A DNA stretch of 32,000 nt. Source: Bacillota bacterium (lineage in GTDB: Bacteria > Bacillota > Clostridia > DSM-8532). Position 1 is the first letter of the stretch; every line of letters starts with the position of its first letter. The stretch covers positions 110,402 through 142,401 of the forward strand of contig JAEZTB010000042.1 in NCBI GenBank assembly GCA_023443745.1. The letters are read 5' to 3'. The notes below the pieces were generated by a model. That model worked only from the letters and a program-made list of their open reading frames with translations. It was not told the DNA's origin and did not search any database. Shown here in pieces: positions 7,762 through 19,060 of this stretch. A program made the position numbers and the translations under genes.

Positions 7762-8163
7762 ATGAGTTCTTTGAAAGCATTTTTAAATCCTATTCAGGTT
7801 GAAAACAAGGAAGTTATTGTATCTAACCGTTTCGTTGAAAATGGGAAGCCGGTGCCTTTTATAATCCGGCCTATCACGCAAAAAGAAAATGAGCAGCTCA
7901 TTAAGAAGCACACCAGGAAGGATAAAAAGAATGAAGAAGTTCTTAACCGTACAGAGTATGTACAGTCTTTGGTTGCACGTGCGGTAGTCTCCCCTGATCT
8001 GGCTGACGCTGAGCTGCAAAAGAAATACGGTCTTGGCGAAACAGAAGTACTAAAGAATATGCTTTTTGTGGGCGAATTTGCTGAGTTATCACAGGCTGTG
8101 CAAGAGCTTAGCGGACTTGATACCAATATTAACGATGACATTGAAGAAGTAAAAAACGCATAA
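7762..8163 (+). CDS. Tail assembly chaperone (XkdN-like), zero-frame product
   Basis: ATG 7762 lies 9 nt after GAGGAGG. The TTG at 7744 in the track falls inside the RBS. Position between the tube and tape measure genes fits. Confidence 0.75.
   Translation: MSSLKAFLNPIQVENKEVIVSNRFVENGKPVPFIIRPITQKENEQLIKKHTRKDKKNEEVLNRTEYVQSLVARAVVSPDLADAELQKKYGLGETEVLKNMLFVGEFAELSQAVQELSGLDTNINDDIEEVKNA
8151..8157 (+). promoter_or_regulatory. -1 programmed ribosomal frameshift slippery heptamer A_AAA_AAC
   Basis: The zero frame reads GTA AAA AAC GCA TAA. The -1 frame is open from 8145 to 8375 and ends 1 nt into the tape measure ATG. Confidence 0.65.
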
Positions 8164-15911: not shown

Positions 15912-16052
15912 ATGCCAGCATGGAAGTTAAATATTTTTGTGAATGCCATTAAGGCAAGGATGGCACAAGAAAGCCGTACAGCAGAAGATATCATTCAAGA
16001 GTACACTAAGCTCACAGAGACAGAAAAGGTTGAGATTTTAGCGGCAATATAG
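15912..16052 (+). CDS. XkdX-like small protein (46 aa, below the ORF-track cutoff)
   Basis: Translates as MPAWKLNIFVNAIKARMAQESRTAEDIIQEYTKLTETEKVEILAAI. The ATG lies 4 nt after the upstream stop. Size and position match the XkdX-family genes that follow fibre genes. Confidence 0.5.
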   Translation: MPAWKLNIFVNAIKARMAQESRTAEDIIQEYTKLTETEKVEILAAI

Positions 16053-16107
16053 GACGCATAAGGATATGAATACGGCCTAAAATTCTACACAAAATAGCAA
16101 AGATTTC

Positions 16108-16136
16108 TTGTAAATAGAACAAATGTTCGATATAAT
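16108..16136 (+). promoter_or_regulatory. Sigma-A type promoter TTGTAA-17 nt-TATAAT
   Basis: -35 at 16108-16113, -10 at 16131-16136, spacer exactly 17 nt. It lies in the 241-bp non-coding gap upstream of the recombinase gene. Confidence 0.6.
16116..16129. promoter_or_regulatory. LexA (Cheo/SOS) box aGAACAAATGTTCg inside the promoter spacer
   Basis: GAAC-N4-GTTC at 16117-16128 matches the Firmicute LexA consensus CGAACATATGTTCG at 12 of 14 positions, with both half-sites perfect. Confidence 0.6.
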
Positions 16137-16142
16137 TAATGC

Positions 16143-16296
16143 AAGGTCTTTGCTATAAATAATTTCATATAGCAAAGGGAGCCTCCCGGCTGGTATCCGG
16201 TTAGCTCCCTCACACAGACCCCTACGTAGGAGGGGAAATGTGCTTGCGCTATAATTATAACATTCTGCCTCCTGCGTATCAATAGGAGGCTTTTTG
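16143..16296 (+). ncRNA. Structured ~150-nt 5' leader or small RNA, unclassified
   Basis: Four successive hairpins: 16148-16177 (CTTTGCTAT/ATAGCAAAG), 16176-16210 (AGGGAGC..CCGG-7nt-CCGG..GCTCCCT), 16219-16235 (CCCCT/AGGGG) and 16267-16290 plus a T-run. The 5' end is inferred from the promoter. Confidence 0.4.
16267..16295 (+). terminator. Terminator-like hairpin that contains the recombinase RBS
   Basis: GCCTCCT-10 nt-AGGAGGC followed by TTTTT. The right arm AGGAGG (16284-16289) lies 7 nt upstream of ATG 16297. Confidence 0.55.
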
Positions 16297-17286
16297 ATGA
16301 AAGAGGAACTTATTGTTAGGATCCTCACCCGCGCGTCTGAATTTCTGGATGATGTCCAGGTCAAGCAGCTCAGGCTTGTTCTTGACGAAGAATTCTACCA
16401 TGTACGTATTACATCAGAGTGTACAGATCTTGTAGTAACAGAAAACACACCTGGGAAGGTGATGTTATTTTTAGCTGCAAAAAAGCTTGATGGGATGAGC
16501 ATTAATACTATTAAAAATTATGCCATCATTCTCCGACGATTTTGTAACGTGGTACATAAGGATATTGAACAGATTACCTCTATGGATATCCGGATGTTTT
16601 TGGCATTACGAAGCAAAGACGGACTCAAGAAAAGTTCTATGGCTTCTACTATTGCTGCGCTGAAAAGCTTCTTCTCTTGGTTAGAAAATGAAGACTACCT
16701 TGTAAAAAGCCCAATGAGAAAAATCAAGAACATCAAGGTTGAAAAACGGCTCCGCAAGGCTTTATCACGGGAAGAGCTCGAAATGCTGCGTGATACGGCT
16801 AAAACTATAAGAGAAAAAGCTTTGCTTGAATTCTTTTATTCAACCGCCTGTAGGCTTGATGAAGCACAGACGCTTAATTTATCTGATATTGATTGGGTGA
16901 ATAATCAAGTAAGAGTTATCGGCAAAGGTAATAAGGAAAGAATAGTCTTCCTCAACGCGCGTGCCAGATTGCATTTAAAAAAATACCTTAAATCTCGAAA
17001 AGATAGCTGTGAAGCATTATTTGTCAGCGAAAGACTTCCACATGATAGACTTGGTCGGCGCGCAATTGAAAAAACTTTTACAGAACTCGGCATAAAAGCT
17101 GGGTTGCCTAAAAAGCTTTTTCCTCATCTAATGCGGCATACAACAGCTACACATATGCTCCAAGGCGGCGCAACATTAGAAGAGGTGCAAAATTACCTAG
17201 GCCATGACAGTCCGGCCACTACCCAGGTCTACACTCAAATTAGCACAGATGCAATTAAACAAAGTCATTTAAAACATGTTATTTGA
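16297..17286 (+). CDS. Tyrosine site-specific recombinase / phage integrase (XerC/XerD-like)
   Basis: N-terminal SAM-like domain, then catalytic residues: R in STACRLDE, K in GKGNKER, HLMRHT (H-x-x-R), LGHDS, and Y in TQVYTQ. ATG 16297 is preferred over TTG 16294. Confidence 0.9.
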   Translation: MKEELIVRILTRASEFLDDVQVKQLRLVLDEEFYHVRITSECTDLVVTENTPGKVMLFLAAKKLDGMSINTIKNYAIILRRFCNVVHKDIEQITSMDIRMFLALRSKDGLKKSSMASTIAALKSFFSWLENEDYLVKSPMRKIKNIKVEKRLRKALSREELEMLRDTAKTIREKALLEFFYSTACRLDEAQTLNLSDIDWVNNQVRVIGKGNKERIVFLNARARLHLKKYLKSRKDSCEALFVSERLPHDRLGRRAIEKTFTELGIKAGLPKKLFPHLMRHTTATHMLQGGATLEEVQNYLGHDSPATTQVYTQISTDAIKQSHLKHVI

Positions 17287-17305
17287 GGACGGGTTATCCC
17301 GTCCT
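17286..17305 (+). terminator. Hairpin after the recombinase gene (weak terminator)
   Basis: AGGACGGG-TTAT-CCCGTCCT followed by TTAAAATAAA. The U-tract is poor. Confidence 0.35.
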
Positions 17306-17339
17306 TAAAATAAATATTTAAGAAAGATGGTGACTCCAA

Positions 17340-18430: not shown

Positions 18431-18457
18431 AACCCTCGGAAAAATCCGGGGGTTTTT
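18431..18457 (+). terminator. Rho-independent terminator closing the prophage late/lysis transcript
   Basis: AACCCTCGG-AAAAAT-CCGGGGGTT with the run TTTTT. Confidence 0.7.
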
Positions 18458-18532
18458 GACTTTAAATCTGTGAACAAATTCAAAAAAAATTTGTCAAATT
18501 ACGTGCGAAAAATTGTCAAAAAATTTGCGAAG

Positions 18533-19060
18533 CTACACGTACGCTTCGATATAATCTATGGCGTAATCAGTCAGACAGTCTGTGCGATAACCGTCAAACT
18601 CAATCTTATTACCATCTTTATCAAAAACATAGCCACCGTAGCCGTGGGAGGTGAATTCCAATACATCGGAAGCCATCCAAAAGTCGTCATATCCACCACG
18701 CCTGTCAAGGGGAACGGCTATCGTTTCGAAATGATTGCATTCATGATCGGAGGCTAAATGCCATTTACCGACATAACCTACATTATAACCGGCTTCACGC
18801 ATTCTCCTGGCAATTGTATGCGCGTTAAGGGGAAGGGAAATGGCATTGCGATAGCAGCCTGTTTGCGTGGGATAAAGCCCTGTCTGGAGCATGGCCCTTG
18901 CAGGCCCGCATACAGGCTGAGGTGTAAAGGCATTAATAAAGTTTACACCCTCCTCAGCAAACTGATCCAGGTTGGGAGTAATATCCAGAGGTTGACCATT
19001 GCATCCAAGCGTATCATAGCGCTGTTGATCGGATAAGAAGACCAAAATATTCTGTTTCAT
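18533..19060 (-). pseudogene. Cys-type sulfatase, N-terminal 175 aa only (3' end removed by prophage insertion)
   Basis: MKQNILVFLSDQQRYDTLG..., CGPARA (C-x-P-x-R formylglycine motif) and GKWH. Typical sulfatases are about 450-500 aa. Similarity stops at ...DYAIDYIEAYV*, next to the AT-rich phage end. Confidence 0.8.

Follow-up and report, generated by a model that had tools for sequence, protein, structure and literature searches.

A prophage of a Bacillota bacterium (Clostridia, DSM-8532; assembly GCA_023443745.1) was analysed in a window of 32,000 nucleotides, that is, the whole stretch from position 110,402 to 142,401 of contig JAEZTB010000042.1, and all positions below are those of this window. 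Its phage morphogenesis genes encode an SPP1-type portal, a Mu-F-like head protein, baseplate J, a Gp48-like protein and a tail-fibre-like protein; they are followed by two small open reading frames (ORFs), a 244-bp gap and the gene of a tyrosine recombinase of 329 amino acids (aa). Next come an Amidase_2 endolysin gene, the gene of a 132-aa membrane protein, a truncated sulfatase gene on the other strand and host transport genes. The gap and the recombinase gene are the subject of this analysis (Table 1). They appear to form a cassette in which the recombinase would be held back by LexA at the promoter, by an attenuator in the mRNA leader and by an antisense RNA acting on that attenuator.

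The initial annotation of the gap had described a promoter with a LexA box in its spacer, flanked by three short repeats. All the strings it reported were found in their places, including the promoter TTGTAA-17-TATAAT, which reaches 10/12 in a promoter scan. What it overlooked is the 154-nt leader with its terminator, the convergent promoter on the minus strand and the pairing of the second and third repeat copies with each other.

Table 1. Features of the recombinase cassette and its surroundings in the 32-kb window
Feature	Positions	Strand	Details
Sense promoter, sigma-A type	16108-16136	+	TTGTAA 16108-16113, TATAAT 16131-16136, spacer 17 nt; promoter scan 10/12 matches
LexA (Cheo/DinR-type) operator, putative	16117-16128		GAACAAATGTTC within the spacer; 3' edge 2 nt before -10
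Conserved 154-nt 5' leader of recombinase mRNA	16143-16296	+	Between promoter and ATG 16297
Hairpin P1	16147-16178	+	5' end of leader; arms are repeat copy 2, TCTTTGCTAT (16147-16156), and copy 3, ATAGCAAAGG (16169-16178)
Hairpin P2	16177-16209		GGGAGC...CCGG-loop-CCGG...GCTCCC; on the minus strand, UUUGCUAUAU after P2
Invariant TCACACAGACCCCT + AGGAGGGG...TGTG	16210-16242	+	Local hairpin CACA/UGUG, CCCCU/AGGGG can hold the P3 5' arm
Helix P3, long-range	16223-16233 with 16268-16278	+	Best-supported helix; proposed antiterminator and anti-sequestrator
Intrinsic terminator and sequestrator of the ribosome-binding site (RBS)	16267-16295 (stem 16267-16290)	+	GCCTCCT-loop-AGGAGGC, then TTTTT
Convergent promoter, sigma-A type	16282-16254	-	TTGATA (16282-16277), 17 nt, TGnTATAAT (-10 16259-16254); inside the P3 loop
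Predicted cis-antisense RNA, ~80 nt	16167-16247	-	5' stem-loop complementary to the OFF hairpin, P2c, U-tract; both ends predicted
Xer-type tyrosine recombinase, 329 aa	16297-17286	+	Pfam Phage_integrase and SAM-like domains
Repeat copy 1	16094-16103	+	ATAGCAAAGA; 4 nt upstream of -35; outside the sense transcript
Candidate dif/lox-like core site	16050-16079		Imperfect inverted arms TAGGACGCATA / AATACGGCCTA around AGGATATG
Hairpin after recombinase stop codon	17287-17312	+	GGACGGG-TTAT-CCCGTCC, then TTAAAATAAA; weak terminator
Sulfatase gene, truncated	18533-19060	-	Cut at position 157 of 301 of the Pfam profile

Related loci, designated here by L and a number, were collected by protein-guided scans, by scans with the invariant leader block CCTCACACAGACCC and by exact-protein look-ups. 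Thirteen distinct homologous promoters share the layout TTGnnn, 3 nt, GAAC-NNNT-GTT(C/T)-G, 1 nt, TATAAT, and in 13/13 of these LexA-type promoters the box lies in a 17-nt spacer and ends 2 nt before TATAAT. The half-sites GAAC and GTTY are invariant across the 13 variants, and 11 different N4 sequences stand between them (AAAT in the window and L001/L034, AAGT in L036, AGAT in L038, TATT in L003, AATT in L006, GGTT in L019, AACT in L025, ATGT in L031 and L039, TTTT in L009, GCCT in L016 and ATAT in L040). Outside these promoters, GAAC-N4-GTTY turns up in the related loci (~190 kb) at a background rate of about one per 20 kb. In the window, GAAC-N4-GTTC occurs twice against 0.29 expected; the second site (453-464) falls within the portal gene and was treated as chance. 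The portal coding sequence at 444-464 reads ATAGCAAAA followed directly by GAACGCAAGTTC, an echo of the pair of repeat and box that was also treated as chance.

Among the LexA operators of C. difficile, those of lexA, recA and ruvC have GTTT and that of uvrB has GTTC (PMC4234289), and the alternation of GTTT and GTTC among the relatives involves these same variants. Invariant half-sites around a drifting centre, on unrelated phage backbones, point to an operator for a host factor. The conserved AAGGTC that begins 7 nt past the -10 puts the predicted transcription start at ~16143. The reading of the initial annotation, which put an operator between the -35 and -10 of a promoter starting at about 16143, thereby gains comparative support from the 13 promoter variants, and there are good grounds to regard the box as a conserved LexA operator in the promoter that would drive the recombinase. 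The same box might instead be bound by a CI-, ImmR- or LexA-like repressor of the phage, so that the recombinase would follow the phage switch. An operator in a promoter spacer is generic, and phages of the set do encode regulators of the helix-turn-helix (HTH)/ImmA type; nevertheless, the retention of the same half-sites across unrelated backbones with different neighbours, and their identity with the Bacillus/Clostridium LexA consensus (PMC4234289), make a phage repressor improbable.

Other cassette-bearing phages have boxes elsewhere. At L033:11023-11046, in the lysogeny module, a perfect 24-bp palindrome, AATCAAGAACAATTGTTCTTGATT, contains a Cheo box between an ImmA-like gene and a 269-aa gene, and may mark a second LexA-controlled promoter. 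At L012:2876 and L015:5555 (minus strand), GAACGGAGGTTT lies 6 nt downstream of a minus-strand TATAAT, possibly as a further promoter overlapped by a LexA site.

Between the promoter and the start codon lies the leader. A covariance model (R1) was built from the first 16 leaders, and 5 were added later, giving 21 distinct sequences. R1 scores 82-172 bits in all 21, and a homologue of the recombinase (47-82% identity) follows directly downstream in 21/21 loci. The model finds no leader upstream of the more distant relatives L005, L007, L042 and L043. A search of the 32 kb with Rfam 15 (4227 families) gave no match at gathering score, and between 15900 and 16500 there were chance matches only (E >= 0.34). 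The leader is a new cis-regulatory RNA family with no Rfam match.

From promoter to ATG, the plus strand folds at -55.5 kcal/mol (z = -3.45). In the model-based alignment of the 21 sequences, standard pairs occupy 92.3% of the cells, and both sides have changed in 12 of the 30 pairs. Covariation scores 0.226; shuffles give 0.101 +/- 0.008 (0/500 reach the observed value) and slid partners at most 0.092. These values argue strongly for the proposed structure, which is very probably the one that the leader adopts. P3 is paired in 96.9% of cells; 6 of its 11 pairs covary, and one position of the helix takes four pair types. The terminator helix is complete in 16/16 sequences (100% paired), the closing pair varying between GC, GU and AU, and the 3' arm of this helix contains the Shine-Dalgarno sequence GGAGG (16285-16289). 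Because P3 and the terminator both require CCUCCU (16268-16273), they are mutually exclusive. The RNAalifold consensus places, alongside the terminator, a local hairpin of CACA/UGUG and CCC/GGG that holds the 5' arm of P3. This hairpin (16210-16242) is a probable helper of the OFF state and a probable target of the antisense RNA; its pairs are almost invariant, so covariation is uninformative for it.

Two candidate elements of the leader were rejected. Attenuation by a leader peptide finds no constant upstream ORF, since those that begin at the invariant (A/C)TGTG share neither frame nor length (4 to >20 codons) nor stop position. A helix P0 (GGUC/GACC), which would close a three-way junction, shows no covariation, and L039 alters both of its sides without keeping the pair.

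The three repeat copies can be read in the light of this structure. Exact ATAGCAAAG occurs at only three places in the 32-kb window (16094, 16148 on the minus strand, and 16169). The initial annotation had offered the copies as sites for a second regulator or for the recombinase itself; a variant of that idea is a fim-like invertible promoter between the inverted copies 1 and 2. That an exact 9-mer recurs three times within 85 bp and nowhere else in 32 kb, with two copies bracketing the promoter as a 10-bp inverted repeat, does invite such a reading, and copy 1 is kept in the subclade of the window, being exact in L036/L037 and L038 and having one mismatch in L034. The arms of P1, that is, copies 2 and 3, nevertheless change together in a manner that keeps RNA pairing: CG becomes UA in 4 sequences, AU becomes UA in 1, and AU becomes GU in 3. 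These departures include G.U in the sense strand, which is compatible with pairing in that strand only. Because a G.U pair is acceptable in RNA but would leave a DNA site asymmetric, copies 2 and 3 are read as the two sides of an RNA hairpin. Most members of the family (L003, L004, L006, L019 and L025, for example) lack copy 1, which is a lineage-specific extra copy. A role of the copies as DNA sites is on this evidence very unlikely. The invertible switch (fimS or RecV type) was rejected, with copy 1 mostly absent, a segment of only 53 bp and a single orientation in 21/21 loci. To our knowledge, 53 bp is far shorter than any tyrosine-recombinase switch described. On the minus strand, the complement of copy 1 could pair with that of copy 2, and in 4/4 members of the subclade a U-rich run comes after the former; we conjecture that this might help to terminate antisense read-through.

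A DNA function has also to be weighed for the leader as a whole. Its hairpins and invariant block might act as folded single-stranded recombination substrates, like attC or the CTX attP, with the RNA switch incidental. The enzyme is indeed Xer/integron-integrase-like, and one leader, L014, is a mosaic, with the promoter, P1 and P2 of L027 and the 3' half (P3, loop and terminator) of L009, joined within the invariant CTCACACAGACCC block. The mosaic is a sign of recombination between cassettes; such mosaics are explained equally well, however, by homologous recombination in the longest identical stretch. The logic of terminator, Shine-Dalgarno and anti-Shine-Dalgarno sequences, the U-tract and the fixed distance to the start codon are features of transcription and translation, and a better core site of the duplex type lies upstream. 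We give a DNA-substrate role hardly any credence.

The minus strand of the leader carries a second promoter, facing the first. It is the best match in a 4-kb promoter scan (11/12, with TG), and 21/21 members have TTGnnn-17/18-TATAAT on this strand (TATACT in L038), in most cases with an upstream TG. Indels move the -35 relative to the RBS but preserve the spacing. This promoter occupies loops of the sense structure, which should be free to drift, and its conservation in 21/21 is for that reason counted in favour of an antisense layer. Transcription is predicted to start at ~16247-16244; the start at ~16247 lies 3' of the segment 16223-16235 (plus strand), so that the RNA would be complementary to the 5' arm of P3. 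For the minus strand between 16248 and 16140, the fold energy is -48.3 kcal/mol (z = -5.7).

P2 gives a further indication. Three of its four inner pairs covary, and its departures of the wobble type amount to 23 cells, in several lineages; read in the sense strand, every one is A.C or C.A and none is G.U, the reverse of what P1 shows. As A.C in one strand corresponds to G.U in its complement, P2 is perfectly paired only in the antisense transcript, of which it is likely to be the terminator stem-loop. P2c is followed by an invariant UUUGCU(A/U)UAU, a plausible though not strong terminator, and the antisense RNA may extend beyond 16167-16247. Taken together, these features make the antisense layer rather probable.

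The same leader might be a riboswitch or a protein-binding attenuator, in which the choice between P3 and the terminator would be made by a ligand or by a protein, possibly the recombinase, bound at the P1-P2 junction and at the invariant CACACAGACCCCU, the minus-strand promoter being nothing but an RNA loop motif. A 17-nt invariant single-stranded block with a conserved multi-helix 5' domain is typical of aptamers, and two alternative 3' structures are a standard expression platform. Such an aptamer would not explain why, in 21/21 leaders, the complement of the loop reads TTGnnn-17/18-(TG)nTATAAT at a spacing that has survived indels. The departures in P2 (23 A.C against 0 G.U) would disrupt a sense aptamer and be neutral in an antisense RNA, and Rfam offers no match. 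We consider this alternative doubtful and favour the antisense-controlled attenuator.

From these elements we propose a composite mechanism, to which we assign a probability of roughly 0.55. In the first layer, host LexA bound to GAACAAATGTTC between the -35 and -10 would block the sigma-A promoter until LexA is cleaved upon SOS induction. In the second, the leader would choose between two folds: in fold A, 16223-33 pairs with 16268-78 (P3), which would leave the Shine-Dalgarno sequence free and prevent the terminator, and in fold B, CCUCCU pairs with the Shine-Dalgarno sequence and would form a terminator just before the ATG. The structure in this layer comes from covariation and the switching is what we infer from it, as we infer the first and third layers. 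In the third, the minus-strand promoter in the loop of P3 would yield a short antisense RNA complementary to 16167-16247, which on the nascent leader would occupy the 5' arm of P3, free CCUCCU and let the terminator/sequestrator form. The recombinase would then be made only when derepressed sense transcription outruns the antisense RNA, giving a thresholded response to SOS. Direct wiring of the recombinase to the SOS response, as first annotated, is in this respect borne out in part: the LexA box has comparative support, and SOS would not be the sole gate, because a conserved antiterminator/terminator switch that also sequesters the RBS lies between the promoter and the gene.

Several observations weigh against this composite mechanism. 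Five promoter types lack the box (L010, L011/L020, L014/L027, L029 and L032), from which LexA control appears frequent but replaceable, and not obligatory; perhaps it is ancestral in the cassette family. The 21 leaders are related, and many were recovered by means of the invariant-block pattern, which biases the apparent invariance there. The invariance of CACACAGACCCCU exceeds what a pure antisense mechanism needs and could indicate a ligand or a protein partner. Lastly, the 3' end of the antisense RNA is a guess, and UUUGCUAUAU is a mediocre U-tract.

Promoter, leader and gene travel together. DNA similarity between loci starts at the promoter or a little before it and runs to the recombinase stop codon or to about 20 nt beyond it, as between the window and L001 (16107-17305) or between L003 and L006 (3763-4990), and a canonical terminator stands directly 3' of the recombinase gene in most relatives. 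The unit, which consists of promoter, leader, gene and, in most relatives, its own terminator, measures ~1.2-1.25 kb and is a moron-like, autonomous unit of transcription. Cassettes occupy different positions in the late regions of many otherwise unrelated Clostridia phages and prophages: before holin or endolysin genes (window, L001, L006/L033, L012, L034 and L039), within tail genes (L040), upstream of head-completion or head-tail connector genes (L020, L010), and at the head of a run of large ORFs (L009, with ORFs lacking a Pfam hit, and L027). A phage with an empty site was sought through the amidase neighbour, and no relative was found. One metagenome-assembled genome (GCA_023415205.1) has two cassette copies, L001 and L035, on contigs JAEZLR010000022 and JAEZLR010000017. 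Both contigs end at one and the same point of the cassette, the -35 (193 nt before the start of the recombinase gene), as they would if the repeat had interrupted the assembly.

At the left edge of the conserved cassette, directly 3' of the stop codon of the upstream 46-aa ORF, lies a candidate for the core site of the recombinase. The arms in the window match at 8/11 positions, an arm score that in single loci is no better than that of the best chance inverted repeats. At the same position L019 has a perfect 11-6-11 site, ATGACGCATTA ggataa TAATGCGTCAT, and sites of 7-8/11 are present in L004, L006, L029, L034 and L038. Most cassettes have arms of the form (G)ACGCAWWA ... TWWTGCG(T) around a GGAT-rich centre of 6-8 bp, ~70-85 nt before the transcription start. 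In the cultured Terrisporobacter phage TPELB_ph1, the equivalent place upstream of a distant Xer-like gene reads TGCACAAT-ttgaatct-ATTGTGCA. The loci with an inverted-arm site after the upstream stop codon include L036, L043 and L045:3155-3185.

L003 and L004 are 99.75% identical for 2 kb rightwards from the central GGATTA; their left arms differ at 3 positions, and upstream of the arm the sequences are unrelated. This pattern is suggestive of what a crossover at such a site would leave. In the window there is no second copy of the candidate core site, a match with 2 mismatches at 8156 having direct, not inverted, arms; a single site in each genome would be easier to reconcile with multimer resolution or cyclisation than with inversion. 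The case for 16050-16079 as the recombinase core site is likewise suggestive. It is conceivable, if rather unlikely, that the dif-like site, the LexA promoter, the antisense-gated leader and the Xer-like gene form an autonomous SOS-triggered recombination module, which would move between phage genomes or swap late-gene modules between co-resident phages at its own site. If so, the three layers of tight repression would guard against an unscheduled burst, since any host chromosome harbouring two copies would be rearranged by it.

The recombinase belongs to the Xer type and has a two-domain architecture. It scores 229.1 bits with the NCBIfam XerA model (cut-off 220) and 94.8 bits with the integron-integrase model TIGR02249 (cut-off 265), and no integron cassette array is visible nearby in the ORF lists. 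Its closest solved structures are P. abyssi XerA and E. coli XerD, and in the alignment with 4a8e the catalytic motifs ACRLDE, GKGNKER, HLMRH, LGH and VYT (the R-K-H-R-H/W-Y set) can be read off the sequence. More than 120 relatives have at least 50% identity with it. Cultured phages gave no nucleotide match, and the protein search gave only relatives of 40% identity or less. In TPELB_ph1 the order is tail, Xer-like gene, holin and endolysin, as in the window, and a second gene is annotated only as 'integrase'; L033 and L040 have a separate large serine recombinase, which in L033 adjoins ImmA/HTH genes. A separate second recombinase in these three phages marks the Xer-like enzyme as accessory, and that of the window is probably not the prophage integrase. 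At L042:5143-6003, where no leader is detectable, a second, shorter tyrosine recombinase (286 aa) directly follows the first, upstream of terL. In Ruminiclostridium papyrosolvens (L044, ATAY01000028), a 52%-identical homologue lies 3' of FtsK/SpoIIIE and Replic_Relax genes, in surroundings that resemble an integrative mobilisable element more than a phage; the leader-model match there is weak (15 bits).

Lysis genes fill the ~1.2 kb from the recombinase to the end of the prophage. That end, at ~18.41-18.53 kb, coincides exactly with the break in the sulfatase gene, which stops about halfway along its Pfam profile, so that the prophage was apparently inserted in this gene. Two 27-nt direct repeats (18476-18502 and 18510-18536) lie at the junction of prophage and sulfatase, 3' of a strong terminator (18433-18457). 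The hairpin after the recombinase stop codon was not picked up by a terminator scan of the region and lacks the T-run found in the terminators of relatives. A weak promoter-like TTGAGG-17-TAAAAT (17283-17311) overlaps it, just upstream of the amidase gene. Read-through to the amidase gene, which the initial annotation had considered, is not a conserved design, given the terminator 3' of the recombinase in most relatives; it is possible in the window, where the T-run is poor, and either read-through or the TTGAGG-17-TAAAAT site may be the source of amidase expression in this prophage.

The proposed circuit has parallels among known systems. Several temperate phages use host LexA directly, among them GIL01, coliphage 186 (tum) and CTXphi (rstA). 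As in these, a phage promoter of the cassette would be wired to host LexA and not only to a phage repressor; their circuits control the decision between lysis and lysogeny, whereas LexA in the cassette appears to gate one accessory enzyme. The rep genes of pT181, pIP501 and pAMbeta1 are controlled by countertranscript-driven transcription attenuation. They share with the cassette an exclusive antiterminator and terminator before the RBS and a convergent promoter for an antisense RNA to the 5' arm of the antiterminator; the cassette differs in that the gene is a phage recombinase, LexA is combined with the attenuator, there is no sequence similarity and the antisense RNA is a prediction. In IS10, RNA-OUT and RNA-IN provide antisense control of the transposase. 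There a cis-antisense RNA from an opposing promoter keeps an enzyme that rearranges DNA very low, as one would in the cassette, but control is of translation and stability only, with neither a terminator switch nor a LexA box.

Guerin et al. are said to have found in 2009 that integron integrase promoters (PintI) are repressed by LexA. Control of integron cassette recombination by LexA has been described (PMC4234289). Both PintI and the cassette have an Xer-related tyrosine recombinase and a promoter overlapped by a LexA box, such that recombination is, or would be, licensed by SOS; unlike PintI, the cassette has the Gram-positive box GAAC-N4-GTTC, no evident attI or attC, and an added RNA attenuator with an antisense promoter.

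Xer modules with a single recombinase and an adjacent site are known as XerS-difSL, XerH-difH and Cre-loxP. In tyroviruses, the Xer-like gp50 lies in the structural module beside an 11-6-11 site, its function being unexplained (PMC9703825). Like these modules and gp50, the cassette has an Xer-like gene beside an inverted-arm site with a centre of 6-8 bp, and, like gp50, it is embedded among late genes; in the cassette the site is a candidate only, degenerate in the window, and the leader and LexA box are not described for the others. The cassette could offer a handle on the puzzle of the Xer-like recombinases found among the structural and lysis genes of Firmicutes phages (PMC9703825). At ~1.25 kb it is small enough for direct testing with reporters, and the candidate 11-6-11 site makes the substrate of the enzyme testable. 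If the proposed mechanism is true, the cassette would show in compact natural form how a protein repressor, LexA, superimposed on an antisense-RNA attenuator can yield a thresholded DNA-damage switch. A LexA-controlled recombinase and an antisense attenuator are both of known kinds; what is new is the RNA family and, as a variant, this combination.

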